Notes: generated by a model not told the origin, from the letters alone. Counted from the stretch's first letter, positions 6,893 through 25,387 are shown. The stretch is 57,672 nucleotides of DNA from Candidatus Micrarchaeota archaeon (GCA_018813505.1 JAHJBM010000056.1:1-57672); one strand, 5' to 3'. A program made the numbers and translations.

Positions 6893-7417
6893 ATGGCGAA
6901 TATGCTGGACAGCTTTCAAGAAAGACTTCAGAAAGTCCGCGCAGGTATGCGAAAGATCGAGGATCTAGCATTTAACATCTACGAAGAATTTGATGAACAA
7001 TTTCTTACCCGTATTTACAGGGATGAACTCGGAGAGGTCTCTGTTCATGTGTTGTCAAATGATCTTAACAAGGATATCTCAACCATAGATCAGATATTTG
7101 ATCTGATCGCAAATCCGCCTGCTTCTGATTTCTACCGCGTTAAAATGCATACTTGCTCATGTTCAAAATTAAAACACCTGCAGCCAAAAGGCAAGATCCT
7201 GCTTAAAACAGTCAGAAATCTAAAAAAGCTCACAGCCGCAAAAAAATGCCTTCAAAATGATTTTTCATTAAGGCAGGTAGTGCTAAGGCAAAACGGCAAT
7301 GCACTTGAGATCCATGCAAAAGGGAAGGAACTTTCTATAATCGGTCGTTCACTAAACCAAATAAAGAAAAAGATTCGGGTTGTTGGTTTTTCTTCTATTC
7401 TTATCAGAGTTTCTTGA
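6893..7417 (+). CDS. hypothetical protein (174 aa)
   Basis: Only long ORF in the interval. No recognisable motif. Confidence 0.35.
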   Translation: MANMLDSFQERLQKVRAGMRKIEDLAFNIYEEFDEQFLTRIYRDELGEVSVHVLSNDLNKDISTIDQIFDLIANPPASDFYRVKMHTCSCSKLKHLQPKGKILLKTVRNLKKLTAAKKCLQNDFSLRQVVLRQNGNALEIHAKGKELSIIGRSLNQIKKKIRVVGFSSILIRVS

Positions 7418-8006
7418 ATGCAAGAATACCTTTTTCTGTTCTGAAAAAAGTGTATCCTTCTGACAAATAAAGTTTTTCAAGTTGGTTTCCTGCTTCTGTT
7501 ATGTAGTCAGCAATGCTACCTTTGGGTATGTCTTCATATAAATACCCGATTCCATATTGGAGTTTTTGTTCAACTACTTCTTTTTCCCGCTCTTTTAGTA
7601 ATATACGCCGTACTCCTCTGCCTTCATAAGCCAACAATACTGCTGGATCTTCCATATAAAGTGCATTTGCCTCACCACCTGTGATCGTTTTACTCTCAAT
7701 ATCTAGTTTGGCCGGCCATGCTAGTCCAACACCGATTATCATCCTGTTTACTGTTGCACCGAAACTTCTTCCATAATCAATTATGCTTTTTACCTCTGCT
7801 TCGGTGACATCAAACGCACATTTACGCATTACCTTAACACATTCATCTACGTCTTCATCTGTTAATCGTTGTATCTCTATTTCTTCCTCATCAAGAAGGT
7901 TAAGAAATTTTATTTTGTTCTCTTCTTTTTCATTTGCATCTTTTTTCGTTTCTTGTTTAAAAGATTCCATATTTCTCACATAAATCGTGTGCCACATGAA
8001 GGGCAT
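7404..8006 (-). CDS. GNAT-family acetyltransferase-like protein
   Basis: Acetyl-CoA motif-A-like LLAYEGRGVRRILL. An alternative start at MESFK (7970) would reduce the overlap with the upstream gene to 7 nt. Confidence 0.5.
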   Translation of the reverse strand: MPFMWHTIYVRNMESFKQETKKDANEKEENKIKFLNLLDEEEIEIQRLTDEDVDECVKVMRKCAFDVTEAEVKSIIDYGRSFGATVNRMIIGVGLAWPAKLDIESKTITGGEANALYMEDPAVLLAYEGRGVRRILLKEREKEVVEQKLQYGIGYLYEDIPKGSIADYITEAGNQLEKLYLSEGYTFFRTEKGILAFKKL

Positions 8007-8314
8007 TTAGTATACAGAAATTCCATTCTATATCCACATATAGGACATATATAATAAGTCTTTTTAGCCCTTTCTAATTCGGCTTCAAATTCATAATAAC
8101 ATTTTAAGCATTTTTTTATGTCAAGTTCATTCAGTGCATTGCATCTCGGGCACTTTCTTCTGAACATGCTTTTTATGCGTATTCCACATTTGGGGCATCT
8201 TTCCATACTCAGGTTTACTGTCTCACCGCAATTTGGACAGCTCTGCGAGTGGTTCTTTCCATGGTGCGCATCCCTGCCTTTTACCATCCCGCTGATAATA
8301 TCTCCAAGTCCCAT
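7976..8314 (-). CDS. small protein with three tandem zinc-ribbons
   Basis: Three CxxC-N(9-13)-CxxC units: CPNCG..CPKCG, CPRCN..CLKCY, CPICG..CPSCG. Confidence 0.65.
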   Translation of the reverse strand: MGLGDIISGMVKGRDAHHGKNHSQSCPNCGETVNLSMERCPKCGIRIKSMFRRKCPRCNALNELDIKKCLKCYYEFEAELERAKKTYYICPICGYRMEFLYTKCPSCGTRFM

Positions 8315-8355: not shown

Positions 8356-11300
8356 TCAATCAATTATAGTGCAATTTATATCATACTCTCTTATATTTAC
8401 GACCTGCATTCCACAGAAGCTTGATATCGTTTGTATATCTGAGAAATCTCCACCTATACTGCAATCTGCGTTCGGATCCCCTGTTTTTGGGAATACTATT
8501 GGTTTGTTTATGGGATGTATCGATGATTTTTTTGAATAGCTATATGTTATTCCTGTGGTTTCATCGAGTAGGCAGCATTTATCTGGCTTTGAAAGCCCGC
8601 CAACGACGTCAAGATAAAGCTCAGAACCTACATCTGCCATTGATCCGGATATCGTTTCAGTTGTACTGTTCAAATATGTTTTCGTACATACATAATTTCC
8701 AGGTATCTCATTGCACAATCTGCACGGTTCCAATATTGTATTGTCAGGACATTTATACTGTACTCCTGCCTCAACACTATCAGGTAGTGTACAAAGTTCT
8801 CCATTCTCACAGGTCATTTCACAACTGCCCGGAGTTTCTACCTCGAGGCTATTGCATCGTGTGCAGTTTATCGATGTAAGTGCTGGTATTTCAGCAAACA
8901 TCGCCATTGGTGGACTTGCAGACATCATTCCCATTGCCTGTTGGAATGCACAGAACTTTTCATCTTTTATGCCCACGCCAGCATCAACATCCACCAATCC
9001 TGTTGATCCACTACCACTTTCATCGGTTGTCCTGACTGGTGAATATATTATCCCTATTATCCCTGACTTGATGAAGTCATCTTGTTTAAGTATCATATTT
9101 ACAAATATGTTCTCATAGTCTGCCCTATCAAAAACAGGGTAATTCTCAAGATTGAATCCTACTACCATTGTCGGTTTTCCTTTTGTTTGCAGTGCTATTC
9201 GGCCATATGATTCAAGATCCTCAGCAATCGCATTACCTCCGAAAAAAATTACCGGGCGTTCAGATGCCCTATAATCAAACGTTACAAGATCGATGTTGAA
9301 ATAGATTCTTGGGTCAGCTAGCACCGATACTACTGAATCTCTGAAGCTTTCATTTGTTAATGGGTTATCAACGTGGAATGCAACAAGACACCCAACACAT
9401 TTGCTTCTTACAATTGCAGATCGTTGTGCGATTTGTTCTATATCCTCAGCAGTTGCCTCACCTTTTATATGGTCTACAATGACTACTGTTGCACCCATAT
9501 TACCGAACAACTTTTCAAAATCATAGTCAAGATATTCATCAGATGCCTCAGTATAAAACAATGAATAGAACCATCCATATTCTTCATAATCCGGATTTTT
9601 CAGATTCCAATTAGTTTCATTACTTATATCAAGAACCGGCATAACTCCTGATTTCATATAGTTGCCCAGTCTCATCTTCATAACTGCGGCATCTGGTGCA
9701 GTTCTTGGCGATCCTTTGCTTCCTATCGAATCCATATATTCATCAATATCTGTGATATGGGGATTATAGCATGAGACACTATCGCTAACTTCTGTACCAT
9801 CTGACCAGCTCCAGTCTGCACTGTACTCTGCATCACATATCAATTCTTCATTCCTGTATTCACTGTCCTGTATGTTTGCAGTAATACCTGGCATGTAAAC
9901 ATCATCCTCTGCCTTTATCTCCTGATATGCGAGTGTTGATGTTGTACATGGATTACACCAGCCATATGTTTTCATCGTTGGCAGATATGTGGCATCATCA
10001 ACTGCGCAGCTGCCAATTCTGCCTGAGGTAGGGTTATATTTGAACAAATAAATGTACTTGCTGAAGAGCATGTTATACTCGGTTTCATAATCGCCGAAAG
10101 CTAATGTATAAATCCACGATCTCCTAAGTTCGCAACTACGTGTGTCTTTCCAATCATTTTCCATTATCCAGTCATATACATTTCTTTCACTTAACGATTG
10201 GGGGGCGAGAGAGCTGACAAATAAACTTCGCCTTCCTTCCCATGAAAAAATGTCCGTTACTCCCTTGCTATAGCTCACCACCCACGGGATCGAAGCGATT
10301 ATTGGATCATAAACATTCATGATCCCTCCGCATCCATCGCTGAATCCATTTTGCGTCATTCCTTCGACATTATCAAGGAAATATGGTGCAAATGCTTCCA
10401 TGAGGGTATCCCATGTCTGGTCTCCTTGAGAGTTTATTTGTAATCTTATGTAATCATCTGTATTGATTGTTCCAGTATCCGCGGCACTGCATGGTGCTGG
10501 TCCGGTGGCAGTACAATAAGCACTACATTCTTCTGCAAGTACATCTCCTTCATCATCATCATATGCTGGTGCACATGTATCTGCACATCCTGTGTCACAT
10601 TCCCAGCTACCATCCTGTTCAGGAAGCGAGAACGTGCTGGTGTGATCCATATCACAGTTTTTCACCACATACATATCCTCAAATTCATCAGGGCTTGCTA
10701 TTGCATATCCTATTATCGTATCGCCCATGTAAGTTACTGTATCCTGCCCTATTCTTCCAAAGAACACTGCACCACCTATTGGTGGTTGGTATGTGGATTC
10801 ATCAACCATTGAACACACTACAAAATCTTCACCATCATTTTCGCCATAGTCTTGCGGGCAGTCCCTTCTTTGTGTCAGATACGTATCAATATTGTATGGG
10901 GTGTGACTGATAATTCTTGTTGAGAATACTGTGCTTCTTGGTCCTGTTACCCAATCACTATCAGTAAATTCGTTCCAGTATCCTTCAAGTTCTTCCATCT
11001 TGTCATCGTCCATGAAATCCTCAAGCTCATACAATGGATTTCTGCCGCCTTCAACATGTGCAAACCCAACATCGACTTCAGCATAATCTATTGTTGGCGG
11101 CATTGTAGGATTTGGCTGGATAATATTTGTGGTTGGTGCACAGACTATTCTTGTCCTTCCATTTACATCCGTAATTTTGTTGCAATCAACCACCACTTCG
11201 GTTAGTGTTTCTCCCTCATCTGCACTATATCTTACGAATACTCCTCTGTTATATATACTCACATCACAGTTTCCAGAATAACACTCTGATTTACCGGCAT

Positions 11301-12312
11301 CACACTCAAAAGGTGCTCTTGTTGTTTCACCGCCAATGCCATAAATATCTCTTGCGTGTGCAACTGCAAGATTTCGTTTATAAAATCCAATGTCCAGTTC
11401 CTTATAAACGCTTTCAGGATTGAAATATTCATCACTATATGTGTAAAATCCCCCATCGTCAGCTACCCATTCTGCTTGATAATCAACATTTCCATGATGC
11501 GATAGATTGTAGCTTGACTGATCTGGCATTAATGTATCATACGTTATATCTCCAACCTCTGGCAGCGTACTTGACCTCTCGCCAGAGCTTTCAGAAAATT
11601 CAAAAGGTGCGGGTATATCGGAGTCATCAAGGCAATTTTCATCTATGTCAGATATCGGATCGAATTCGAGTCTGTCTGCACCTATATAATTCATATATCT
11701 ATCAACCCTTAGATCGTCTTCACTTCTTGGTGGATTGATATTGCAGAATTTGTCAGACATCGGGAAGTAATATTTATACTGGTCATATTCATTGAATGAG
11801 CCACCAACTCCCATTCTGAATACATTTATCGCTGATTTTGAATTTTTCATTACCTGCCTTAATTTTGCATCCATAGGAAGGAATCTGCACTGTGCCTTGT
11901 AGAACTGTGTTGTTATTCCTTCTTCAGTATCGGGCGGAATATCACCTGAAGAATCCTCTACACTTATGAATCCTGGTGCAACTCTTGGAGTGTATTTGTA
12001 GTCCCCACAAACCATGGCAGTACACTCTGGTGCTATGCAGGTTACAAGATCATCCTGTGTACATATCGGTATAAGATATTCGGTGCCTTCTATATCTACC
12101 TTGCAGTTGTCCGTCGTATCCTGTTCCTCATTGTCACATTCGCCTATTGTTGAACCAGTATAATCATATTCTAGGAAGTCTGTGGTGTTATAAAGTACAC
12201 ATCCATCCTCTATATTGTCTTTTAGACAACATCCCAATTTTGTTACTGGTTTTATGCATCCGGCGGCAATAATCAGCACAACAACCAGAATTGCAAATGT
12301 GAGTTTTTTCAT
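8356..12312 (-). CDS. giant (1318 aa) acidic, cysteine-rich secreted/lipoprotein-like protein, function unknown
   Basis: Signal peptide with lipobox-like end (MKKLTFAILVVVLIIAAG-C). I counted about 51 Cys. No further TM segment. An alternating beta/alpha-looking central segment (ATVVIVDH..CLVAFHV..LVTFDY..TMVVGFNL..IIGIIYSP). C-terminal CxxC-rich module. Confidence 0.85.
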   Translation of the reverse strand: MKKLTFAILVVVLIIAAGCIKPVTKLGCCLKDNIEDGCVLYNTTDFLEYDYTGSTIGECDNEEQDTTDNCKVDIEGTEYLIPICTQDDLVTCIAPECTAMVCGDYKYTPRVAPGFISVEDSSGDIPPDTEEGITTQFYKAQCRFLPMDAKLRQVMKNSKSAINVFRMGVGGSFNEYDQYKYYFPMSDKFCNINPPRSEDDLRVDRYMNYIGADRLEFDPISDIDENCLDDSDIPAPFEFSESSGERSSTLPEVGDITYDTLMPDQSSYNLSHHGNVDYQAEWVADDGGFYTYSDEYFNPESVYKELDIGFYKRNLAVAHARDIYGIGGETTRAPFECDAGKSECYSGNCDVSIYNRGVFVRYSADEGETLTEVVVDCNKITDVNGRTRIVCAPTTNIIQPNPTMPPTIDYAEVDVGFAHVEGGRNPLYELEDFMDDDKMEELEGYWNEFTDSDWVTGPRSTVFSTRIISHTPYNIDTYLTQRRDCPQDYGENDGEDFVVCSMVDESTYQPPIGGAVFFGRIGQDTVTYMGDTIIGYAIASPDEFEDMYVVKNCDMDHTSTFSLPEQDGSWECDTGCADTCAPAYDDDEGDVLAEECSAYCTATGPAPCSAADTGTINTDDYIRLQINSQGDQTWDTLMEAFAPYFLDNVEGMTQNGFSDGCGGIMNVYDPIIASIPWVVSYSKGVTDIFSWEGRRSLFVSSLAPQSLSERNVYDWIMENDWKDTRSCELRRSWIYTLAFGDYETEYNMLFSKYIYLFKYNPTSGRIGSCAVDDATYLPTMKTYGWCNPCTTSTLAYQEIKAEDDVYMPGITANIQDSEYRNEELICDAEYSADWSWSDGTEVSDSVSCYNPHITDIDEYMDSIGSKGSPRTAPDAAVMKMRLGNYMKSGVMPVLDISNETNWNLKNPDYEEYGWFYSLFYTEASDEYLDYDFEKLFGNMGATVVIVDHIKGEATAEDIEQIAQRSAIVRSKCVGCLVAFHVDNPLTNESFRDSVVSVLADPRIYFNIDLVTFDYRASERPVIFFGGNAIAEDLESYGRIALQTKGKPTMVVGFNLENYPVFDRADYENIFVNMILKQDDFIKSGIIGIIYSPVRTTDESGSGSTGLVDVDAGVGIKDEKFCAFQQAMGMMSASPPMAMFAEIPALTSINCTRCNSLEVETPGSCEMTCENGELCTLPDSVEAGVQYKCPDNTILEPCRLCNEIPGNYVCTKTYLNSTTETISGSMADVGSELYLDVVGGLSKPDKCCLLDETTGITYSYSKKSSIHPINKPIVFPKTGDPNADCSIGGDFSDIQTISSFCGMQVVNIREYDINCTIID

Positions 12313-12407
12313 TATATCCCTTTTTCGATCATCAATTCATTCCTTTGATATCAGCGCATTTCTTATCTATTTTCTTTCTTCACTCAATTCATCATTACAT
12401 CCCTTGC

Positions 12408-13457
12408 TCATACTACCTTACTAACCATTCTTGTGAGCTCATATGTATCTCCTCCAAGTATTGTCATCATGTATTTTACAAAAACCATTGTAAGGAAAAA
12501 TGCTATAAGTGGATGCATTATGAGTGCAATATAGGATTTTGATAAGCCCTCACGCGAGGCCGAAAGCGAGAGTCCGACATTGCTTCCGAGTCCTGCACTC
12601 TCTACTGTCTTTAGTATTGTTACTGCATTTGACATTGTTGCATAACAGAATGGTTGCTGTTGTGGTTCTGCAGTTGCTGGTGGGGGTGGTGAAGCTACAA
12701 ATCCCGGATCAAGCAGCACAAAAAATATTGGAAAAATGAAATACATTCCTATTCCTAGGGCAAGGAACAACGCGCCCGGACCACGTGTGAAATAAAAACT
12801 CCGCAACAATATGCCAATAGGTATGAAGATACTGAGCATATTTGTTTGCAGATACTGCAGAAGTATCGATTGTGCATTCAATGCTATCAATAGAACAGTT
12901 GAAAGGTTATTTATTATTCTATTTATCTCTGTTTTTTTGTATAGTGTTGGAAGCCAGTCTCCTTTGAAAACAGTTATGCCAAAAAGACTTACTGCAAGAT
13001 TAAGTGAAAAATAATCCCAATATGTATCTGTATTTACTCTATCCTGTATTGCTGCCACTGCAACTGCTCTTTCCTGTAATCTGCATCTTATGGCATCATA
13101 TGCATCATCCATTGTTGTTTCCGGGTGATCTATGTCTTCGCCTATATGTATTGGTGTTGTTCCGCAATCAACTGTACCGCCTATAAACTGCTGTGACAAA
13201 ACCATAGTGCCTTCAACAATTCCTACAAGGAATATTGCCATAAAAGCAGTTGCCATAGTCTGAAGCATTTCTGATTTTGCAAATGCCTCAACTTCTCTAA
13301 GTGAAAATGCCCTTGCAATCATCAGGAAAATATTGTAAATTATCAGTGCTGTGATGACTGCCATAATACACAATGGCAACCAACCGGCCATCCATGTGGC
13401 ACCGTTATCGCCAAAGAAACTTTGGATTGAAATTATCGGGACGACAGCATCGATCAT
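12408..13457 (-). CDS. paralogous 5-TM membrane protein MP1 (349 aa), unknown family
   Basis: Shares family motifs EAFAKSE, FIPIGILLRSFYFTRGPGALFLALGIGMYFIFP and the C-terminal tail LGGDTYELTRMVSKVV. Confidence 0.85.
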   Translation of the reverse strand: MIDAVVPIISIQSFFGDNGATWMAGWLPLCIMAVITALIIYNIFLMIARAFSLREVEAFAKSEMLQTMATAFMAIFLVGIVEGTMVLSQQFIGGTVDCGTTPIHIGEDIDHPETTMDDAYDAIRCRLQERAVAVAAIQDRVNTDTYWDYFSLNLAVSLFGITVFKGDWLPTLYKKTEINRIINNLSTVLLIALNAQSILLQYLQTNMLSIFIPIGILLRSFYFTRGPGALFLALGIGMYFIFPIFFVLLDPGFVASPPPPATAEPQQQPFCYATMSNAVTILKTVESAGLGSNVGLSLSASREGLSKSYIALIMHPLIAFFLTMVFVKYMMTILGGDTYELTRMVSKVV

Positions 13458-13482: not shown

Positions 13483-14544
13483 TCATATCATCCTCGTTAT
13501 TCTGCTCAAATCTATCTCCTCGCCGTACAATCTTGCTATGTAGGATATGCTTGCTATTGTAGCGAGCATTGCCACGCTTGGCATAAATACTGCGGCTATG
13601 AATGCGTATGCAGCAAAACTTATGGCTTCAATATATCTGTCTTCACCTGGGAAATACTTCTCATATATATAATCTGCGCCTGCAAATGCGGCTCCTGTGC
13701 TTGAACCTGCTGCGCCTGATTCAGCTTCATCAGGGAAGACCTTTTCATTATAATTCATAGATGGATCAGAGAGATAATCCCCTTCTCTATTGACGAGTAC
13801 GTCTCCCATCAGATAAAATATGGAAAGCATAACAGGATAAACAACCAGGAAACATATCGCCATTGTTATAAGGAGCGATCCAAATGATCTCATGTATGGC
13901 ATTGCTCTCAGGAAGACTCCAAGCGGAAGGAATAGAAACACAAATCCTTTGTAAACAAATATGAGAATAAAAAGAAAGTTTAGTGCAGAGAAATACGATA
14001 TTATTGATGAATTGAAAAAGATGTTAAGTGCAGCTACTTTTGCACCATAACCTCCAAGTGGTTGTTGGTTCTCGCCAGAATACCCAAACAAACAACCCCA
14101 TCCTATTGATCCTGTGCTGAAATCGCAGATAAAGGCATTCAGGTAACCGAGCACTGTGTAGGCCTGAAGGTGATATCTTGTGGCAATCAGGGCATTGTGA
14201 GAATATATTGCAGCTTCTTCCAGATAGGTGGATGCGGCATCATAAACATCAACATGTTCTGTTGGCGCGCTTGTTGTTATGTCAAAAATGCCTGCAACTT
14301 CATTCATATTTATTGAACAAAGCGTATTTATGATTGTGATAAGAAAAAATATTGTGAATAATGATACTACTATTTGAATTGATTCTGTCTTTGCCCACAA
14401 TGTTAGTTTTGGATTTGAAATGGCCCTGCCTACCATGAATGAAAGCGCTATGATTATTGCGGTTGTTATGCTGGCATATGCTATTAGAGGTAGTATAGTA
14501 TCATTGAAAAAATTTGTGAAAATTATGTTACATACGTCTGCCAT
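13483..14544 (-). CDS. paralogous 5-TM membrane protein MP2 (353 aa), unknown family
   Basis: Motifs ISNPKLTLWAKTE, FLPLGVFLRAMPYMRSFGSLLITMAICFLVVYP and tail YGEEIDLSRITRMI. Its start overlaps the MP3 stop (TAATG). Confidence 0.85.
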   Translation of the reverse strand: MADVCNIIFTNFFNDTILPLIAYASITTAIIIALSFMVGRAISNPKLTLWAKTESIQIVVSLFTIFFLITIINTLCSINMNEVAGIFDITTSAPTEHVDVYDAASTYLEEAAIYSHNALIATRYHLQAYTVLGYLNAFICDFSTGSIGWGCLFGYSGENQQPLGGYGAKVAALNIFFNSSIISYFSALNFLFILIFVYKGFVFLFLPLGVFLRAMPYMRSFGSLLITMAICFLVVYPVMLSIFYLMGDVLVNREGDYLSDPSMNYNEKVFPDEAESGAAGSSTGAAFAGADYIYEKYFPGEDRYIEAISFAAYAFIAAVFMPSVAMLATIASISYIARLYGEEIDLSRITRMI

Positions 14545-15548
14545 TATACGAACCTCGATATTGCGCTTATATCTATTTCTGCACCTGCCAAGGATGTGAT
14601 TGCCTTTATGCTTGCAGCAACAAGCAGTAGTGATATTACTGGTCCAAGTGTTGCCCTCACCAGGGCAGTGTAGATATACTTACGTATGTCTGACCGTAAG
14701 CCTCGATATGCTTCTTTTGCATTGTCCTCATTTCCAGTTGTTGTTAGTGATGCGGCATCTCCTGCATTACACTCCGCTATATTTGCTGTTGGTGCTGCTG
14801 GTCCATATACTAATTCTGCATCAAACTCATCATCGTCATCAAGGAATGTTGCGGCCATCATTTCATTGAATATGATACCTGCCGGAAGCATTATGTATAA
14901 TGCAACCCCTAGTGCAATAAGCAATCCACCAGCTCCCCTCGTGAATTTCACCGTCCTTAATACTATGCCTAACGGAAGGAGCAGATTAAGTGCAAACTCT
15001 TTTGTTATCTGGATAAGTCTCTTCATTGCACTCAATTCCCCAATTGAAAATCCTACAATATTACCTGCGATTGAAAGTGGAGCAGCTAGTACAGTATAAC
15101 CCCCACAACCGCTGACAGTATATCCCATTCCCATTATGCTACATTGTGATGACTTAGATGCTTCCCTTGATATCTGTAAATCATAAGAACTTATCTGATC
15201 CATTATTTCTCCACTATCGTCTATAATATCATCAATAATTAGTGTTGCTGCATCCTGCATTGTTGCGGATCCTTGTGCGAGTCCTTCGTTTGTTGAGATG
15301 CTGTTTAGGATACTGTCACCGCCTACTAATGTTGCAAGAAGGAGTCCAAAAACAATTAGCTGTACTAGTTCTTCCTTTGCCATCATTTGCATTTCATTTA
15401 ATCCAAAGCCAAATCCTACCATATATATAACTGCAAGTAATCCTGCTGATATGCCAAATGCAAGAAGTGCAATGTTCTGCCATGCTGCAAATGCCATTGG
15501 CACCATGAACAAAAATATCAATAAAAACAACATCGTGCGCTTCATCAA
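14544..15548 (-). CDS. paralogous 5-TM membrane protein MP3 (334 aa) with signal peptide, unknown family
   Basis: Signal-peptide-like N-terminus ending MAFA-AW. Motifs MQMMAKEE, LLPLGIVLRTVKFTRGAGGLLIALGVALYIMLP and tail AGAEIDISAISRFV. 4-nt overlap with MP4. Confidence 0.85.
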   Translation of the reverse strand: MMKRTMLFLLIFLFMVPMAFAAWQNIALLAFGISAGLLAVIYMVGFGFGLNEMQMMAKEELVQLIVFGLLLATLVGGDSILNSISTNEGLAQGSATMQDAATLIIDDIIDDSGEIMDQISSYDLQISREASKSSQCSIMGMGYTVSGCGGYTVLAAPLSIAGNIVGFSIGELSAMKRLIQITKEFALNLLLPLGIVLRTVKFTRGAGGLLIALGVALYIMLPAGIIFNEMMAATFLDDDDEFDAELVYGPAAPTANIAECNAGDAASLTTTGNEDNAKEAYRGLRSDIRKYIYTALVRATLGPVISLLLVAASIKAITSLAGAEIDISAISRFV

Positions 15549-17662
15549 AACACCTTAGATATTCCTGGGATTTCTATGTCCCCTCCGAGTATGGTTGAAA
15601 GTCCTTTGATAAATACCAATGTCGCTACAATATTGAACAATGGAAGCAGGTATATTGGAAGTATCAATTTAGCGATGTTCTTTATTCCCTCTCTACCAAC
15701 CAAGCCATCTTCACCTATGTTCATATAACTTCCAGCATCCTTTATGGGTGCATTATCCGGTGGTTTGCAGATATCTGCGCATTGGGTTTGGATTGGTGGA
15801 TCATATGCATATGATTCTTCAGCAAACAAACACATTTCGCACGAGCTTCTTGGAACTACTACTCTATACTCGCCAGGACACAAATCAAGTGAGCACCCAT
15901 CTGTTGTGTATTCTTCTGGTAATGATGGGGTTACAATTCGTTTTTCAGCTGGGCAAGCACTACACATTCCTTCAGGCACGGTAATCTCAAGTATGTCATG
16001 TTTCCTTACCTTACAACTGTTAGGGCAGTTCATACATGCTTCTGAAAACACTGTTCCTGTTTCGTCCTTGCAATCATCAGGTAGTTGATCAAAATCTACT
16101 TGGTCTTCTTCAGTATAATTTGGGTTGTTATCTATCCTGCAATAGGCCGGGCAATTCCCGCATATTGCCTCGTCATTGCATGTGCCTATTTCAGGTATCA
16201 CATATGCACATGATTGTTCTGCAACTAGGTTCACTGGGCAATTCTGTGCAATTAAACATTCATGATAATTTCCTGCATCTTCATTTGGCGTAGGCCACCA
16301 TGTGAGCGAACTACCCAATTCGCTTCCAGTTCTTTTGTATACTCTGCAATCATATCTTGACTCAAGGCAGTCATCAACATCACAATTACTTCTTAATGGT
16401 GGAACTACCTTGCACATTGATGGGCATTTATTATAGGTATCATTGTCAAAACTTGAAGCTTCAGTATTCACATAACGCACAACTTTGCAGTTCTCGTTTA
16501 AGTGTGCACAATCCCTTTCAACTGTCGAAGTATTAAGGCACACTACTGCATTATATGGATAAGGTAGTGCTCTGCACACTGATGGGCAATCCTCTTCACT
16601 ATATTCATAATAACACGAGAAGACTAATGTGCCATCGCGGCCAGCTGTCGATTCCAGGCTGCCTTCTATTAGTTCTTTTGCTGCAGCTGCGTTATCCTCA
16701 GGTAATGCGGCATATATCTCTTGTACGGTTTCAAGTTTTTCTCCATCTGCTTTATACGCAAGTGGTGGGGCTGCTTTGCATTCATCAGGACAATAGACAT
16801 TTTCATCTTCCATTGCCTTATCACCTGTCATGGCCATATCAAGTGTAACCCAGTCAAAAATGTACATGCCAGGTAAGAAGAACATTATGCCTGCTGCAAC
16901 TGCAATAAGAAGTCCGCCTAGTTTTCTTGTAAAATAAAATGTTCTGGCAATAATGCCCAAGGCAAGTATTATCGGTCCCATCTTAAACGATATCTGGTTT
17001 ACAAAGAACCGTTGCGCTTCCATGAAAGATAATAGGTTTGTATAGTACTCAAACATTATGGCATACATATCCATGTCCAGCACATACTGCCCTGCCATCG
17101 TAGTTGTGAGTCCGAGTTGTAAACAATATATTGTCAGGCAGTTAAGTCCCATCCTTCTGTTTGCCCATGAGGCCGCATCGATATTGTTTATTAGAACACT
17201 TCTTGCTCCTGTTTTTGCAGTTTCAATATAATCATACAAATACGCATCTGTGACATTTCTTAGACAGCTTCCTCCAGGTACACTACATTCAGGTATATTT
17301 AGCCCGCTTGTCATTACCATTGCAGAAACTATGGTATCTACAAATCCTATGGCAACTATGAACATCAGGATTATTACAGCATTTGCAAATATCTGGCCAA
17401 GTTCATTTCCTGCCCATGCTTTTATTTCAGGCATTTCCATTCCAGTTCCTACTGCATATGCAATAGCAACCAATATGCACGATATAATCAGTGCAATCAC
17501 AGCAAGCGCTTGCCAGTTTTTTATTATTTCAAGTGGTGATCCTTCGGTCTCACCTTCTATTCCAGAAGTCGCATTCTGAAACTGCGTTTGAGTATATGTG
17601 TTTGCAAAGCAGAGCGTTATGAACAACGTCAGGAATATAAGAAGCAGTATTGGTTTTTTCAT
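15545..17662 (-). CDS. paralogous membrane protein MP4 (705 aa) carrying a ~370-aa, 32-Cys ectodomain insertion
   Basis: Signal peptide MKKPILLLIFLTLFITLCFA. Motifs MPEIKAWAGNE, IILALGIIARTFYFTRKLGGLLIAVAAGIMFFLP and tail LGGDIEIPGISKVF. The Cys-rich insert lies in the loop after TM4. Confidence 0.85.
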   Translation of the reverse strand: MKKPILLLIFLTLFITLCFANTYTQTQFQNATSGIEGETEGSPLEIIKNWQALAVIALIISCILVAIAYAVGTGMEMPEIKAWAGNELGQIFANAVIILMFIVAIGFVDTIVSAMVMTSGLNIPECSVPGGSCLRNVTDAYLYDYIETAKTGARSVLINNIDAASWANRRMGLNCLTIYCLQLGLTTTMAGQYVLDMDMYAIMFEYYTNLLSFMEAQRFFVNQISFKMGPIILALGIIARTFYFTRKLGGLLIAVAAGIMFFLPGMYIFDWVTLDMAMTGDKAMEDENVYCPDECKAAPPLAYKADGEKLETVQEIYAALPEDNAAAAKELIEGSLESTAGRDGTLVFSCYYEYSEEDCPSVCRALPYPYNAVVCLNTSTVERDCAHLNENCKVVRYVNTEASSFDNDTYNKCPSMCKVVPPLRSNCDVDDCLESRYDCRVYKRTGSELGSSLTWWPTPNEDAGNYHECLIAQNCPVNLVAEQSCAYVIPEIGTCNDEAICGNCPAYCRIDNNPNYTEEDQVDFDQLPDDCKDETGTVFSEACMNCPNSCKVRKHDILEITVPEGMCSACPAEKRIVTPSLPEEYTTDGCSLDLCPGEYRVVVPRSSCEMCLFAEESYAYDPPIQTQCADICKPPDNAPIKDAGSYMNIGEDGLVGREGIKNIAKLILPIYLLPLFNIVATLVFIKGLSTILGGDIEIPGISKVF

Positions 17663-18660
17663 CCTAACACCTTCATCGCCTTATTCATCCCACTTAGGAA
17701 CGTTATCAGTACCGCAATAGTTAAATTTGGCAAGAAGAATGCCTGTGGTATAAGTCTTGCAACATTCCAAAAGCTGTTCGGGTTTGTGCATGTGGCTATC
17801 GGATCATCTGAGCAACCATAGCTGTCTATGGTGTTGTCACATGCAACATGCGCATATTCTTCACAGTCATACATCACTAATTCATACATAGTAAGCGTGA
17901 ACACATACATAAACGGTACGAGTATATAAAGTCCGAGTGCCAGGGCAATCATAATATTTCCCATTTGTCGTGTTGGTGGGAATACACGCAATACAAATGC
18001 TACTGGCAATATCCATCTTACCGTATTATCTGTGATAAATCTCAGCGCAAGTTTCTGCATGCTTATACTCATAAGTGAGGGCACAATGAACGTATTGAGT
18101 ATCATATCATATTGGTTTGAGATTATTCTTTTGTATGCCCCACCGCTTACTGTGTATGCATTGAACAGAGGTATTTGTATACTATATGAAAATGTTGAAT
18201 CCATAAGGTATCCAATATAATTGTCTATATATCTTTCAGCCAATCTCTTTGAATCACGATCTATCATATTCATGTAGCACATGGAAACAGAATTCATTTG
18301 AGAGCCTGCATTATAACATGTGGATTCCGCGTCAAAATGTGTGAATATCGATTCATAAAACATGCTCATAGTACTACATGTAAAAAGCACTATTCCGCTA
18401 AAAGCAACCAGCATCAAAAGCGAAAATCCGAGGTGGTAAAGTTCGTCTTTTGCAAAAACAATGTATTTTGGGTCGCTTATAACGTTTCCTAGCATGTAAG
18501 TTCCTGCAATTACAAGTACTGTGAGCATGATCGCTGCAACAATGTTTACTCCTTCTTCGCTTAGCACAATTTCTGTGGCATTATTGATACAACTGCCTGG
18601 GAATACTACTGCGGTTAGAAACAGAACAGCTATTATGATCCTGCATATGGGAATCATCAT
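17659..18660 (-). CDS. paralogous 5-TM membrane protein MP5 (~333 aa) with signal peptide, unknown family
   Basis: Motifs ISDPKYIVFAKDE and ILPVAFVLRVFPPTRQMGNIMIALALGLYILVP. I prefer the start at MMIPICRII (18660), which forms an ATGA overlap with the MP6 stop. The ORF track extends to 18690. Confidence 0.8.
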   Translation of the reverse strand: MMIPICRIIIAVLFLTAVVFPGSCINNATEIVLSEEGVNIVAAIMLTVLVIAGTYMLGNVISDPKYIVFAKDELYHLGFSLLMLVAFSGIVLFTCSTMSMFYESIFTHFDAESTCYNAGSQMNSVSMCYMNMIDRDSKRLAERYIDNYIGYLMDSTFSYSIQIPLFNAYTVSGGAYKRIISNQYDMILNTFIVPSLMSISMQKLALRFITDNTVRWILPVAFVLRVFPPTRQMGNIMIALALGLYILVPFMYVFTLTMYELVMYDCEEYAHVACDNTIDSYGCSDDPIATCTNPNSFWNVARLIPQAFFLPNLTIAVLITFLSGMNKAMKVLG

Positions 18661-19856
18661 ATCAGCCTCTGTATTCCTGCCATATACCACTCGCCTCCCA
18701 GCGCCCCGGAAATACTTCTAGCCCCTGCAATCGTTATGATTCCTATAAGTATAATGTCAAGATAACCTAGAAAAACAAGGTTGCCCACATCCCTCAGGAA
18801 CGGGTAAAGTGCATTGAATACCTGATTTGCATAATCATCTGATCCTGCGCTATAAACCGCTTCCCATATTATAAGCACTGCCATTATCACGAGCTGGAAA
18901 ATCATATTTATAAGAGGATAAACAACTTCTTTTACGAGGTTATAACAGGCCGTGTATAATCCAACGCCGATAACTGGTACAAGCAGCATTGGCAGGCATA
19001 CGATAAGTGCGAATCCAATATCAGTTGAAAGTAGCAGTGTCCTCATTACAGTTGATTCGCATAATGGTTCCATCATTACCATTGCCCATGGCCTTGCTTC
19101 AAGTTCTGAAAGATCGATGCTTGGTTCAGGTCTATCTATTGTTTGGTTCATTGATTCTGCAAGTATCACTGAAAACGGGAGCAATACTATACCTGCAACT
19201 GCAAGCGCTATAAGTGTGTTGCCTGTTTTTCTTGTGAATGGTATAATCCTAAGGCAAAGTGCAAGTGGGAGAAGTATTTTTGGTGCTGTTATTTTGATAA
19301 ATGAAAGTAACATACGTACTCCTTCTGTTACAAATATTACGTTCGCAAGATTTTGGGCTGCAATATTCATGCTTCCGAGTACTATGCCCACACCAGCTAT
19401 TGGTGATGTTGAATAGCTAATTGATACATACCATAATGGCAGGCTCATGTATGGTGAATAGGTAGCTGATGCGCGAATCCTTGTTGCAGCACCAACTATT
19501 TTTTCAAATGCATTGTCATAATCTTCAAGCCATTGATCTGCGATATTCTCTGCACCCTGAATATAATTCACATCTCCAGTAAGTGCAATACTTATGCTGT
19601 TTGATGTTACTGTAAAAAACAATCCCATGATAATCGCGATCAATAAAAGTGCTGCAACAAATTCCCGTGTTTCAATCTTGATCCATGCGTCAAGCTTTGG
19701 ATCAGAAATCGCATGTGAGAGCATTCCTGCAGTAGCAAGAAATATCCCTACTATGATTGCAACTGCCGGTACTGCAAAAGTAAGGTCTATGGGATTTACT
19801 GAAAATATTGTGGTTGTTAAGACAAATAGTAATAATATAGGGCGCCACAATTGCAT
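18657..19856 (-). CDS. paralogous 5-TM membrane protein MP6 (399 aa), first gene of the operon, unknown family
   Basis: Signal-peptide-like N-terminus. Motifs ISDPKLDAWIKIE, LLPLALCLRIIPFTRKTGNTLIALAVAGIVLLP and tail LGGEWYMAGIQRLI. Confidence 0.85.
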   Translation of the reverse strand: MQLWRPILLLFVLTTTIFSVNPIDLTFAVPAVAIIVGIFLATAGMLSHAISDPKLDAWIKIETREFVAALLLIAIIMGLFFTVTSNSISIALTGDVNYIQGAENIADQWLEDYDNAFEKIVGAATRIRASATYSPYMSLPLWYVSISYSTSPIAGVGIVLGSMNIAAQNLANVIFVTEGVRMLLSFIKITAPKILLPLALCLRIIPFTRKTGNTLIALAVAGIVLLPFSVILAESMNQTIDRPEPSIDLSELEARPWAMVMMEPLCESTVMRTLLLSTDIGFALIVCLPMLLVPVIGVGLYTACYNLVKEVVYPLINMIFQLVIMAVLIIWEAVYSAGSDDYANQVFNALYPFLRDVGNLVFLGYLDIILIGIITIAGARSISGALGGEWYMAGIQRLI

Positions 19857-19950
19857 AGCTAGATTTCTTACTTATACATTTAAATGTTTCGTGTTTTTGG
19901 AATCGTGCATGATGCATCATGTTTATAAATTTACTAAAATAATTCCCATC
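19857..19950. promoter_or_regulatory. divergent promoter region with two TATA-like boxes
   Basis: ATTTAAAT (19878-19885) is centred ~25 nt from the MP6 ATG (19856, minus). TTTATAAAT (19922-19930) is centred ~25 nt from the ATG at 19951 (plus). This spacing fits leaderless archaeal transcripts. Confidence 0.4.
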
Positions 19951-22900
19951 ATGAGGCTTATTCCAGCTTTTCTCTGCATTGTGCTCTTTGTTCTTATCAC
20001 ATCTGTCGCTTTTGTCTTTGCCAGTAACCCACCTCCGTGTATCACATGTAACGAGCTTGCAGATTCATTCCAGGTACATCTATTGTCTGAGTTGCACGAG
20101 CCGGAAAACCAGTTTGAGGTTTGGGCATACTATGAAGATACTTCCATAAGTCCTCCAAGGCAACCTGTAAATGATTCCATACTTATTGTTGAAATAAGAA
20201 ATGTTGATGGACTAAGTGAAATCTATAAAATATACACCGATGATGCTGGGAATGCAATTTTTGATTACGAGGACTGGAATGACGCTTGCATAAATTTCAA
20301 AGTTCTTTATTGTCCTTTTTGTTTGCCAGATTCCGAGGAATGCGGTTTCCGTGAATGCCTTGAATATTCGAGCATAAGCACAGATTCTGGTACATACACC
20401 AACATTATCGGAGCTGTTGAAACTATTGATAGTATTCCTGCTGCACCTGGGGCATCGCCGCCTGTTGAGTTGGATTCGCGGAGATTTCTTCCAGAATTCG
20501 TAACAACAACCTATTGTCCCCCTCCTGCTCCACTTTCAGGTACTCCGGCAATGTGTCTTCCATTATTAGTTATTTTTTCAATGCTTGCAGGTTCACTTTA
20601 TATGACCGGGCGAAATCCGTTTGCAGGATTTAGTATGGGTGGTGCAAAGATTGGGAGGCACATCAGATACCAGGCACGGGGTCGCGGTTTCCATTTCTCT
20701 GGAATGGCTGCACTTTCTGCAATTAGTACTGTCACGCGTGCCAGTAAGACTGGAATGACTAAAGACAAAAAAACTGGTGAACGTGGTGGTTCCAAGGCAC
20801 TCGGAAAACAAGAAAAAGCGCAGGCAAACAATCGCGGTTTCCTTGGCATGGGTGGCCTTAGCAGTAAAACAAGCAGATTTTCTGCACTCTCAAACCGCGG
20901 GGGGCAGATAAAACGACTCATGAAAGATAGTTTAAAAGGAAAAACAGATAGCAAAGGCAAAGCTCTAAGTTTCAATGAAAGACTCAAGCGCGGTAACAAA
21001 TGGATTGAATCAACTGCTTCTGGGGCTGGTAGGGATACCGCAACATCAGTTGCTGTAAAACCTGGGGAATCCCAATTCCTTCCAGGTTCAAGTGGTATGT
21101 CACCCCGTTTAAGCGAGCTCGGGAGTCATGCCGGCCTAGGACTTGTAGTTTATCTTCTTAGTGCCACAACAATCGGTGGTATTGTCGATAGCATTTATCG
21201 ATCTGCCACTGGGCAATCTATATTCGAGGCTCTTTTTGTCGACCATGAAAGACGTGCAGTTCAGGATGCAACCTCCTTTGATGAAATCGCAGAGCAAAGA
21301 TGCGTGCGTAATGCAGATGGACGCATAATTGCATTGAACATTGACATAGATGGCCGTGAAAGAGTTACTGTCATTGGCTCAAGGCCTGGTGAGGAAGAGG
21401 GTACAACTGTTTACACTGTCAATGTACCTGTAAGTTCAGAATTTGCAGGTGAGGAAACAGTTGTTGTTGATGAACATGGGACAGCTGTTCCAACTCCCTC
21501 TGGACAGACAAATCGCGGGACATTTGAAGTTACTACTGATTCCAGAAATCGCGTAATTCAGATAGCTTATCAAGCGCCTTCATCAATTAATCTTTCTGGT
21601 CCTAATGCGTCTCCATGGGTTGCAGGTGCTGCACCAGCAGATCTTATTGCTGGAACAGAGCGTGTGGTAGTGCGTGTCGGGGCTGATGGCTCTCCGCAAT
21701 TTACTGTGGAATATCAGATTCGCGGTAGCGATGGTCGTGCTGAGACACGCACTTCACCAATTACCGCGCCTGTTGCAGGCACTGATATTGAAGGTTTGGG
21801 TGACCGCATGAACTTTGCAGGTGTGAATGCAACCTATGGTGGTATAGTTGCCGAGTCTGGGTTTAGTCTTGGTTCAAACGCATCTGACTTTACTAATGCC
21901 TATAGTGGAGGTCTTGAGGATCTCAGGGCTGCTGCGGCTTCATCTTCAGAAAACACTCAACGGGCACAACAGGAAAATCAACATGATCTTAACAGGGCAT
22001 TGCGCGATGTTGATCCAAATTATGTGAGATCTGTAAGGGCCGAGTATGCAGACAATCTAGTCGGATTCCTAGTAGCTGGTACCTCTGGTTCCACTGCAGG
22101 TGTTGATCTTCGTGAGACTAGTTTTGAAGGTCAGCCGGCTGGTCCTGGATATGATGTAAGTTATGCAGGTTCAAGAGGTCGGGTTGAAGGAGGCAGACCT
22201 AATGATCGGATGGATCCTTCTTCTTCAATTGCGTTAAACATTGGCCAAGCTTGGGGTCGGACAATTGGTGACTCTGATTTTGCAGGTCAGGTTGCAGAGG
22301 CATCTGGTCTTGAAGGTTCAGGTAGGGTTCAATTTACCCGCGTTTTAGGCATTGCATTGGCCAGAAGTGATCACAGTCCTGAGGATTTCAGAAGCATGAC
22401 TCTTGATGAATTCCAGGGGGTGCTTAGAGACAATGGTCTGAGTGAGGATGTTGCCCGTGATGTTGGAGCCGGTGCGCTTGCAAGAGTACAAGATGGTTTC
22501 GCTGATCTTGAACGTGAACTGACAAGGGAAGGAAACAGAATCGGCGCAGATGCAACAGATCGTCTTATGGGGTCCAGTGTAGCACAAGTTAGTGGGGTGG
22601 TGCAGGGTGCAGGGTCTCTTTTTGATGATAATGTAGGTTCATTATTACAGGATCGTTTGACTGATCCACAACTTGCGGAAGTTGCCCCCCAGTTAAGAGA
22701 ACAGGCTTTCCTTGATGGTATGGGTGATTCAGTGGGTGGGGCACAGGCCTCTTTGGGAGTTAATGCTGGGTCTGGCCCTAATAGTAATATTGTAGGTTTC
22801 GAACAATTTGGCGGTAATATGGCTTCGCTTAGGGAAAATACTGAAGACTATGTACAACAGGTTGCAATTGATCGTGCTCATCGTAGCGGTCATCTGAGTG

Positions 22901-23460
22901 ATGAAGATTATCAAGAATCAAATCGTGCATTCGATGAATTCATAAGAGCAAGAAGGATCGAAGAAAGTGGGGCAATGGATCCTGGTCAAGAATTCCGGGC
23001 AAGAGAAAATACCGAACGTTACATAATGGATGGTAACTACACTGGCGCTATCTATGAGCTGGATCGCAGGCGTGTGGCGTATGAACAGGCAGAAGATACG
23101 GCTACTGCAGAAAGATATGCCGAGGCCAGACGTTTAGTGGCAGGACATGCTGGCGAATCTGGTTTTTCAGCATCTCAGGCACAGGAACATGTTGATGAGT
23201 ATCGTGCTGCAATTGGCATCCCTGAAGAACGAGAACAGGCTAGGCAGGAGGCAACACTACGTAATCATGTGTATCATACACCAATGCCTAGTGATTCGGA
23301 ATTAAATGATAATGCAGAGAGACGAAGAGCCAATCGTTTGGCATCTGAAGCATATGGTCATAACACGCAAGCAAGAGCAAATGGTTCAGAGATTCTTATT
23401 GGTGTTCGTGAACATCTTATTGAAGCCAATCCGACTTTCAGCAAAGATAAAAAGAATTGA
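19951..23460 (+). CDS. large (1169 aa) membrane protein: Cys-containing N-terminal ectodomain, TM segments, basic Gly/Ser/Lys/Arg linker and ~770-aa Cys-free Gly/Ala/Arg/Asp/Glu-rich tail; unknown function
   Basis: The ORF-track start (19594) lies inside MP6 on the other strand. MRLIPAFLCIVLFVLITSVAFVFA at 19951 is a signal/TM start behind a TATA box (alternative ATG at 19909). TMs: AMCLPLLVIFSMLAGSLYMTG and GLGLVVYLLSATTIGGIVDSIY. Confidence 0.8.
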   Translation: MRLIPAFLCIVLFVLITSVAFVFASNPPPCITCNELADSFQVHLLSELHEPENQFEVWAYYEDTSISPPRQPVNDSILIVEIRNVDGLSEIYKIYTDDAGNAIFDYEDWNDACINFKVLYCPFCLPDSEECGFRECLEYSSISTDSGTYTNIIGAVETIDSIPAAPGASPPVELDSRRFLPEFVTTTYCPPPAPLSGTPAMCLPLLVIFSMLAGSLYMTGRNPFAGFSMGGAKIGRHIRYQARGRGFHFSGMAALSAISTVTRASKTGMTKDKKTGERGGSKALGKQEKAQANNRGFLGMGGLSSKTSRFSALSNRGGQIKRLMKDSLKGKTDSKGKALSFNERLKRGNKWIESTASGAGRDTATSVAVKPGESQFLPGSSGMSPRLSELGSHAGLGLVVYLLSATTIGGIVDSIYRSATGQSIFEALFVDHERRAVQDATSFDEIAEQRCVRNADGRIIALNIDIDGRERVTVIGSRPGEEEGTTVYTVNVPVSSEFAGEETVVVDEHGTAVPTPSGQTNRGTFEVTTDSRNRVIQIAYQAPSSINLSGPNASPWVAGAAPADLIAGTERVVVRVGADGSPQFTVEYQIRGSDGRAETRTSPITAPVAGTDIEGLGDRMNFAGVNATYGGIVAESGFSLGSNASDFTNAYSGGLEDLRAAAASSSENTQRAQQENQHDLNRALRDVDPNYVRSVRAEYADNLVGFLVAGTSGSTAGVDLRETSFEGQPAGPGYDVSYAGSRGRVEGGRPNDRMDPSSSIALNIGQAWGRTIGDSDFAGQVAEASGLEGSGRVQFTRVLGIALARSDHSPEDFRSMTLDEFQGVLRDNGLSEDVARDVGAGALARVQDGFADLERELTREGNRIGADATDRLMGSSVAQVSGVVQGAGSLFDDNVGSLLQDRLTDPQLAEVAPQLREQAFLDGMGDSVGGAQASLGVNAGSGPNSNIVGFEQFGGNMASLRENTEDYVQQVAIDRAHRSGHLSDEDYQESNRAFDEFIRARRIEESGAMDPGQEFRARENTERYIMDGNYTGAIYELDRRRVAYEQAEDTATAERYAEARRLVAGHAGESGFSASQAQEHVDEYRAAIGIPEEREQARQEATLRNHVYHTPMPSDSELNDNAERRRANRLASEAYGHNTQARANGSEILIGVREHLIEANPTFSKDKKN

Positions 23461-25225: not shown

Positions 25226-25387
25226 GCCGAGGTCGCATAATCTGGTAGTGCGCCGGTCTTGAAGCGTTTTGTGTTTTGTTCTTTTGGTTTTGAGTTGGGG
25301 TTTTTTTCCCAAAACCGGAAACTAAAAACCCAAAACGCAATTCAACCGGTCCCTCTGGGATTACAGGTTCAAATCCTGTTCTCGGCG
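25226..25387 (+). tRNA. tRNA-Ser(UGA) with an 80-nt intron at the canonical 37/38 position
   Basis: Cloverleaf read by eye. Acceptor GCCGAGG/TCTCGGC. D arm GCAT-AATCTGGTA-GTGC. Anticodon stem CCGGT/ACCGG with loop CT-TGA-A[intron 25264-25343]A. Long variable arm TCCCTCTGGGATT. T arm ACAGG-TTCAAAT-CCTGT. Discriminator G. No encoded CCA. Confidence 0.85.

Follow-up and report, generated by a model that had tools for sequence, protein, structure and literature searches.

The window analyzed here is a 57,672-nucleotide (nt) stretch of DNA from Candidatus Micrarchaeota archaeon (GCA_018813505.1 JAHJBM010000056.1:1-57672), and our subject is a large protein encoded in it, hereafter GIANT, together with the genes alongside which it is conserved. 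We consider it fairly probable that GIANT belongs to an envelope complex that has not been described before and is so far seen only in Micrarchaeota, and that it forms the extracellular subunit, anchored to the membrane by a lipid at its N terminus. The GIANT coding sequence, as defined from the listing of open reading frames (ORFs), its translation and its homologs, occupies positions 8356..12312 on the minus strand, starts with ATG and encodes 1318 residues followed by a stop codon. It lies directly downstream of an array of six paralogous genes for membrane proteins, MP1 to MP6. A first-pass annotation, made from the sequence of the window, had accurately reported an acidic ORF of this length and position with about 51 Cys, but was silent on its strand. 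GIANT has exactly 51 Cys and 38 Met, and its pI is 4.15, with 127 Asp and 93 Glu (220 acidic residues) versus 46 Lys and 45 Arg (91 basic residues). Asp, Ser, Thr, Gly, Glu and Tyr are abundant (5.8-9.6% each), Asn accounts for 4.9%, and there are seven N-glycosylation sequons (N-x-S/T).

Conservation of GIANT and its operon

A search of 5.8 billion proteins retrieved 69 clusters of GIANT homologs, at 31-51% identity. These are ~1100-1760 residues long and nearly all full length, one being seemingly frameshifted, and about 35 Cys columns are invariant in their alignment (alignment A1). At the sequence level, the 69 clusters and the ~35 invariant Cys rule out a chance ORF, and GIANT is a genuine protein. 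All named homologs belong to Micrarchaeota, Bilamarchaeum or ainarchaeum and are annotated as hypothetical throughout, and a scan with one genome per GTDB species identified 54 GIANT loci, all in Micrarchaeota. When 1.84 billion representatives were searched exhaustively with a HMMER profile, 271 relatives emerged at E ≤ 1e-3, 181 of them at E ≤ 1e-30, the individual hits inspected being the best 150 of the 271. Distant relatives match best over profile positions ~590-1144, which correspond to the β-sandwich, barrel and C-terminal domains described below, and the sole name among ten distant hits that were looked up is "Candidatus Micrarchaeia" (1 of 10). GIANT has no match in Pfam or NCBIfam (E ≤ 0.1) or in PHROG, and no PDB sequence was hit, even at E ≤ 10, whether the query was GIANT itself, a profile of its full length or a profile of the barrel.

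The six MP genes are on the same strand as GIANT. MP6 (399 residues; 18657..19856) is the first gene, and is followed by MP5 (343 residues; 17659..18690), MP4 (705 residues, including a Cys-rich insert of ~400 residues in a predicted extracellular loop; 15545..17662), MP3 (334 residues, but probably 320 because of an internal start; 14544..15548), MP2 (353 residues; 13483..14544) and MP1, a polytopic membrane paralog of 349 residues (12408..13457). These genes overlap or nearly abut one another. Since MP1 ends at 12408, the spacer separating it from GIANT (12313..12407, minus strand) is exactly 95 nt long, precisely the gap that had been noted before. It is purine-rich, with an AAGGGA 4 nt before the ATG, and no terminator-like site was detected in it by a scan that used bacterial promoter and terminator models and is uninformative for an archaeon.

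Gene order is strictly conserved. When related loci were compared by tblastn, the six MP genes were found upstream of GIANT in identical order in each of the 45 loci for which 7.6 kb or more of upstream DNA was available, each MP in the loci that were checked matching best its positional counterpart (25-60% identity). From the MP1 stop to the GIANT start, the median distance is ~0-1 nt, and it is ≤ 35 nt in 42 of the 45 loci; gene calls in two relatives give a gap of 0 nt and a 1-nt overlap. The association also holds in the reverse direction, as MP3 homologs, one of them only 30% identical, lead to the same array, ending in a gene for 1150-1279 residues. There are 49 Cys in both of these array-terminal products, and a lipobox in the one with an examined N terminus. 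Co-occurrence with the MP family, suggested at first pass as a check, is thus seen from either end. The proposal that GIANT is transcribed together with the MP genes gains support from synteny, namely the fixed order (45/45) and the gap of mostly 0-1 nt, and comparative genomics points to a single, tightly packed operon, MP6-MP5-MP4-MP3-MP2-MP1-GIANT, in which GIANT comes last.

Three genomes harbor two copies of this set of genes (loci L032/L038, L008/L019 and L044/L046), and one of them has both copies on a single contig, separated by 17 kb. Two of the pairs were compared, and the GIANT copies proved to be 36-40% and the MP copies 42-55% identical, which makes the duplications ancient and, in these pairs, GIANT the fastest-evolving part of the module. 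All comparable genes have been retained: in one pair these are all seven operon genes, in the other the comparison did not include MP1. Neither g200 nor Lon, which flank the module, was duplicated along with it.

An eighth gene belongs to this conserved set. It is divergently oriented (plus strand, ~19909..23460, start uncertain) and encodes a signal/transmembrane (TM) segment, a Cys-containing ectodomain, a TM segment and a low-complexity region of ~950 residues predicted to be cytoplasmic. Its homolog is divergently upstream in 37 of the 45 loci, and follows GIANT on the same strand in three distant lineages. The ORF as listed starts at 19594 and overlaps MP6, which is probably too far upstream. 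The ~950-residue region is rich in Gly, Ser, Ala, Arg and Glu, with a local GC content of 0.43-0.46, as compared to ~0.39. The product has no match in Pfam, NCBIfam or PHROG. Because the module is conserved and has been duplicated as a block, we take the unit to be eight genes. None of the eight products falls into a described family, and a single domain has a recognizable fold, which is apparently degenerate; no published description of the module was found in the literature searched. On this computational basis, we rate the module as lying outside the known kinds of system.

Predicted export and domain architecture of GIANT

As for export, GIANT has a single hydrophobic segment (residues 5-23), followed by A-A-G-C19, so that the initial claim of no second TM segment stands. 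The signal peptide and lipobox (residues 1-19, MKKLTFAILVVVLIIAAG-C19; 12256..12312, minus strand) are of the classical type and conserved. In the alignment of the 69 homologs, an N-terminal Lys or Arg is followed by a hydrophobic core of ~10-25 residues and then by the lipobox, in which G18 and C19 are invariant (69/69) and positions -3/-2 are [LIVFA][ASF]. The lipobox is kept even in the most distant relatives examined (25-30% identity), in one of them merely as F-G-C, and these distant relatives share a conserved G-C-C motif after it. The lipoprotein-like export signal proposed at first pass is therefore a feature of the family. The number of Cys is odd in 60 of the 69 homologs (with a mode of 47), as would be expected if one Cys is lipidated and the remainder pair up in disulfides. 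In DPANN archaea, both lipobox proteins and AliA (arCOG02177), the enzyme that lipidates them, are reported as prevalent, the latter with gaps (PMC12462473). Lipid anchoring at Cys19 thus has good support as a prediction from the sequence.

The architecture of the mature protein was predicted with AlphaFold2. The model, which covers residues 119-1318 and was built with 68 sequences, has a mean predicted local distance difference test score (pLDDT) of 86.7 and a predicted template modeling score (pTM) of 0.85. Outside the modeled span, residues 20-118 (11959..12255; this and all following domains on the minus strand) form a Cys-rich region with an invariant G27-C28-C29 and nine further Cys in alignment A1. 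This is followed by β-rich domains at residues ~245-538 (10699..11580; model residues 127-420, mostly with pLDDT > 85), and by a variable acidic insert at residues ~556-620 (10453..10647), a predicted helical hairpin with CX3CX3C...CX3C...C motifs that is carried by ~25-45% of the homologs (column occupancy 0.23-0.45 in A1). The Cys in this insert (C572x3C576x3C580 ... C596x3C600 ... C608) resemble a twin-CX3C disulfide-stapled motif. Next come an α/β region (residues ~621-740), a β-sandwich domain (residues ~743-848; 9769..10086), with strands at model residues 625-730, and a TIM barrel similar to those of clan GH-A glycoside hydrolases (GH) (residues ~863-1131; 8920..9726), which was delineated from its alternating β/α units, Foldseek and an alignment of its own (A3). 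The chain ends in a Cys-rich β-domain (residues ~1135-1318; 8359..8910; model residues 1017-1200) with 14 Cys that are for the most part fully or almost fully conserved. The C terminus had been called CxxC-rich, of which the richness in Cys is borne out (15 Cys in residues 970-1318), but with only three CxxC motifs (972/975, 1150/1153 and 1197/1200) the wording was overstated.

The barrel is the part of GIANT whose fold can be recognized. When the model was compared with the PDB using Foldseek, 196 hits with E ≤ 1e-3 were obtained, led by GH2 β-glucuronidases (E 6e-7), then GH10 xylanases, GH53 galactanase, GH5, GH30 and GH51. The clan GH-A matches have E-values of 6e-7 to 1e-4 and a probability of 1.0 at 8-15% identity, the GH10 and GH53 hits showing TM-scores of 0.45-0.49 when normalized to their ~300-residue targets. 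The GH2 hits span 520-600 aligned columns, which is enough to include β-rich sequence beyond the barrel, although the aligned query ranges are not displayed. In a viral structure library, phage GH5 proteins rank first. The β/α units at residues ~863-1131 include all the strands from which an α/β, TIM-barrel- or hydrolase-like fold had initially been suggested, and that suggestion was right, since Foldseek places the barrel with clan GH-A hydrolases. As modeled, the GIANT barrel is a clan GH-A type fold.

Whether this fold is still that of an enzyme was assessed in alignment A3, which contains 40 sequences including the most distant members of the family. Its invariant residues are P892, G940, R964, C972, C975, A978, G1084, G1087 and C1121. 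In these 40 sequences, there is no conserved Glu at any barrel strand end and no Glu/Glu pair. Specifically, no acid/base Glu (Asn-Glu) is conserved at the end of strand 4, where the candidate ends, taken from the secondary-structure prediction, are H-V-D or F-D-Y and differ between members, and no nucleophile Glu is conserved at the end of strand 7, where the candidates end in I-I-Y-S-P and L-V-D, with an Asp in ~60% of the members as judged by eye. Among the acidic residues at the strand ends examined, D895 is the only one conserved family-wide, while D947, H980/D982, D1013, N1054 and D1108, found at strand ends in the window protein, give way to unrelated residues in other members, the candidate acidic positions being taken by S, N, T, K, G or W. 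Kept at or just past strand ends are D895, N901, W902, Y1014 and Y1090, a composition that points to a pocket for sugar binding and not to a catalytic center.

These data bear on the idea that GIANT might be an active extracellular glycoside hydrolase, which would digest host or environmental polysaccharide while tethered beside a membrane uptake platform. The Foldseek matches to clan GH-A with a probability of 1.0 are what an enzyme would give, as are the β-sandwich immediately before the barrel, the length of the GH2 alignments and, in the subfamily of the window protein, the Asp present at two strand ends (D1013 and D1108). Nevertheless, we find such an activity very unlikely, in view of the missing Glu where the GH-A acid/base and nucleophile are expected, the replacement of the candidate acidic positions in other members, and the failure of GIANT to match any GH Pfam family at E ≤ 0.1 or, with the barrel-only profile, any PDB sequence at E ≤ 10. 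Since no examined strand-end acidic residue other than D895 is conserved family-wide, the barrel is probably not a GH-A glycosidase, contrary to the enzyme alternative entertained at first pass. Most likely, it derives from the glycosidase fold but serves for binding or as a structural element instead of for catalysis, because the two catalytic glutamates are missing while the pocket residues are kept, which makes binding of a ligand such as a glycan, or a structural role, likelier than hydrolysis.

The membrane paralogs MP1-MP6

The six MPs are all mutually homologous (hhalign probability 97-99.9%) and hence true paralogs, but comparison with Pfam, NCBIfam and PHROG returned nothing meaningful for any of them. 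MP3 has no Pfam domain, and its 116 orthologue clusters come without exception from Micrarchaeota or unnamed sources. We modeled it with AlphaFold2 (pLDDT 88.7). The model is almost wholly helical, with very long helices, some of which lie outside the membrane, and a single β-hairpin flanked by the invariant C122 and C134, which would form a disulfide. The agreement between hydropathy, the positively charged loop R-x5-R and the disulfides implies a topology in which a cleaved signal peptide is followed by an outside N terminus, five TM helices and a cytoplasmic C-terminal tail. Also implied are a helical ectodomain of ~100 residues between TM2 and TM3, and another loop on the outside that connects TM4 with TM5. 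This loop has grown to ~400 Cys-rich residues in MP4, which has 38 Cys overall, and is short in the other paralogs. No similarity between this insert and GIANT was detected by hhalign.

Three motifs, all on the predicted cytoplasmic face, recur in the MPs. The first, AKxExxQ, lies before TM2 and is degenerate in MP5 and MP6; the second, P-x-G-x3-R-x5-R-x2-G, lies between TM3 and TM4; and the third, GG[DE]x[DE][IL]xxx[IL][ST][RK][FVM][VI], is in the C-terminal tail of all paralogs except MP5. Common motifs on the cytoplasmic face hint at a shared cytoplasmic partner or a ring interface.

Foldseek returned no PDB hit for MP3 at E ≤ 1e-3. Its top two matches are to TrwI/VirB6 from R388 (E 0.037 and 0.12; probability 0.89 and 0.72), and are weak, with TM-scores of only 0.25-0.28 over ~318 aligned columns. 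The topology published for Agrobacterium VirB6 matches that predicted for MP3, with an outside N terminus, five TM segments, a large central outside loop and an inside C terminus. It could hence be imagined that the module is a conduit resembling type IV secretion systems (T4SS) or Ced, with the MPs as a VirB6/TrbL-type platform and GIANT as an outer cap or adhesin, all the more so because episymbiotic Micrarchaeota exchange material with their hosts (10.1101/2024.05.20.594898). We regard this as quite improbable. Apart from the nonsignificant Foldseek match, none of 110 MP3 orthologues, and none of the six MPs in the window, matches Pfam TrbL (PF04610), the orthologues having been scanned at E ≤ 1. 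When the six MP families were compared by hhalign to a 117-sequence VirB6 alignment, which represents the Agrobacterium-type branch only, probabilities were ≤ 2.7%, the same as for a reversed control. Moreover, the eight-gene module contains no VirB4/VirB11/VirD4-type ATPase, pilin or other T4SS gene. Since TrbL scan, hhalign and gene content are all negative, membership of the MPs in the VirB6 family is not supported, and we retain VirB6 as a weak structural lead for the MPs. A confirmed resemblance would connect an envelope complex of DPANN archaea with machinery of the conjugation type; no publication tying VirB6-like proteins to DPANN archaea was found in the literature searched. Separately, a HerA-like ATPase (HAS-barrel + DUF87) is encoded ~7 kb downstream of the module in two related loci (L001, 20344-21828; L003, 21077-22588), but as no counterpart turned up among the scanned ORFs of the window, it is probably unrelated to the module.

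A putative envelope complex and its relation to known systems

In the complex that we propose, GIANT would be made as the last product of the MP6-MP5-MP4-MP3-MP2-MP1 operon, and the divergent gene, as judged by comparative genomics, would contribute a bitopic protein with a long cytoplasmic tail. GIANT is predicted to be exported via its Sec-type signal peptide and lipobox and then to be lipidated on Cys19, presumably by the AliA-type archaeal pathway. Outside the membrane, its chain of ~1300 residues is predicted to fold into five or six domains held by ~25 disulfides, with the barrel, devoid of the two catalytic glutamates but endowed with Asp895, Asn901, Trp902, Tyr1014 and Tyr1090, probably binding a ligand (glycan) or playing a structural part. 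The six ancient paralogous five-TM proteins would assemble into a hetero-oligomeric platform, plausibly with one copy of each, which is suggested by the fact that the set of six paralogs is fixed across the sampled Micrarchaeota. Their helical, disulfide-stapled ectodomains, together with the Cys-rich ectodomain of MP4, would hold GIANT between the membrane and the surface layer (S-layer). More speculatively, the assembly might serve the architecture of the envelope, contact with the surface of host cells, or both.

A glycan-binding role for GIANT in envelope or host-contact architecture is what we favor, and we infer it from four observations. GIANT has a glycosidase fold that, without the catalytic pair, keeps pocket residues; it diverges fastest in the duplicated copies that were compared; its variable inserts sit in the exposed part of the chain; and the lineage is episymbiotic, the surface of the one host examined displaying galactose and mannose (PMC8975820).

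Several points weigh against the proposed complex. We infer the physical association between GIANT and the MPs solely from conservation of the operon, and the 95-nt spacer of the window, wider than the gap in 42 of 45 relatives, might harbor a promoter of its own. That GIANT is lipidated is a prediction, to which the odd Cys counts lend indirect support. As regards the barrel, its strands were assigned from predicted secondary structure, and with Asp1013 and Asp1108 present in the subfamily to which the window protein belongs, it may have some non-canonical activity.

Alternatively, GIANT might be an S-layer or self-standing envelope protein that owes its place after the MP genes merely to a gene order preserved in a compact genome. 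Its large size, acidity, predicted export and seven N-glycosylation sequons would suit such a protein, as would its occurrence across the sampled phylum and among housekeeping genes. We nevertheless judge this unlikely. An S-layer protein is already known in Micrarchaeota, SLP_Mh, a different protein of 101 kDa with a PF05123 domain and almost no sulfur amino acids (10.1101/2021.04.28.441871). GIANT, by contrast, has 51 Cys and 38 Met, and no S-layer domain (neither PF05123 nor any other Pfam hit), and we rejected it as the Micrarchaeota S-layer protein because the published one is sulfur-poor and has PF05123. As for a self-standing protein, the stop codon of MP1 and the start codon of GIANT abut or overlap in most genomes, and the ancient duplications have copied the whole module but not the flanking g200 and Lon genes. 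The lipid-anchored subunit of an envelope complex remains our preferred reading.

The surroundings of the module are those of an ordinary archaeal chromosome, with genes for FttA, a proteasome β subunit, ScpB, adenylosuccinate synthetase, an exosome subunit, LonB and an intron-containing tRNA in the window. A mobile or viral origin of the module was considered and rejected, in the light of these housekeeping neighbors, the lack of PHROG hits and a GC content like that of the rest of the window. Three neighbors downstream of GIANT, all on the minus strand, lie outside the module: a 200-residue protein (7404-8006) with a weak GNAT hit only, which is 54-81% identical in most related loci and 42% identical in one distant locus; a conserved 112-residue protein with several zinc ribbons (7976-8314); and a conserved membrane-anchored Lon protease domain without an ATPase domain (5101-6849). 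On the plus strand, a tRNA gene of 162 nt (25226-25387) probably has a long intron; it scores 41.6 bits with Rfam and was missed by ARAGORN.

Micrarchaeota are tiny archaea with reduced genomes and rely on other archaea as hosts, and the proteins by which they contact hosts and exchange material with them are essentially unknown. The module, present in every related genome stretch examined, among core chromosomal genes and with products predicted at the cell surface, is therefore relevant to the biology of DPANN archaea and to archaeal cell envelopes.

How does the module compare with known systems? The MPs are reminiscent of VirB6/TrbL proteins, including the tandem arrays of VirB6 paralogs in Rickettsiales, in being tandem polytopic paralogs with around five TM helices and a large outside loop. 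They differ in the lack of sequence or profile similarity, and a fixed set of six paralogs together with a giant lipoprotein has no counterpart in T4SS.

GIANT itself shares with clan GH-A hydrolases (GH2 β-glucuronidase, GH5, GH10 and GH53) a (β/α)8 barrel, preceded by a β-sandwich, which is also the domain order in GH2. In contrast to these enzymes, to which it shows no similarity at the level of hidden Markov models, GIANT conserves neither the Asn-Glu acid/base nor the Glu nucleophile, and its barrel is embedded in a disulfide-rich lipoprotein of 1318 residues. A further parallel is offered by chitinase-like lectins, narbonin and concanavalin B, small soluble GH18-derived proteins with an inactive glycosidase fold used for binding, which have lost the catalytic acids but kept aromatic and polar pocket residues. 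GIANT would share with them a hydrolase-type barrel without catalytic acids and possibly the binding of a ligand, although its barrel is of the GH-A rather than the GH18 type and belongs to a putative membrane complex. GIANT would show a glycosidase fold that seems to have been put to new use after losing its catalytic residues. As in the lipobox lipoproteins of bacteria and archaea, such as those handled by AliA/AliB in Haloferax (PMC12462473), GIANT has a Lys/Arg-containing n-region, a hydrophobic core and a [LIVFA][ASF]-G-C motif with an invariant Cys. It is, however, far larger and far richer in Cys than typical substrate-binding lipoproteins.

Finally, cryo-electron tomography of the micrarchaeon ARM-1 has revealed a 21-nm barrel-like complex beneath the S-layer that docks host nanotubes, as well as multi-domain densities linking the S-layer to the membrane, no protein having been assigned to either structure (10.1101/2024.05.20.594898). 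It would be a long shot to propose that the eight genes build a phylum-specific, envelope-spanning machine, with a VirB6-like hetero-hexameric base, GIANT as glycan-binding cap and the divergent protein as cytoplasmic tie, acting as a docking or bridging complex to hosts of which the ARM-1 21-nm barrel would be an instance. More generally, the ARM-1 structures resemble what the module is proposed to build in being large complexes between membrane and S-layer in the same phylum. The module is a candidate for envelope structures of the ARM-1 type, and supplies concrete candidate proteins for these tomographic densities.

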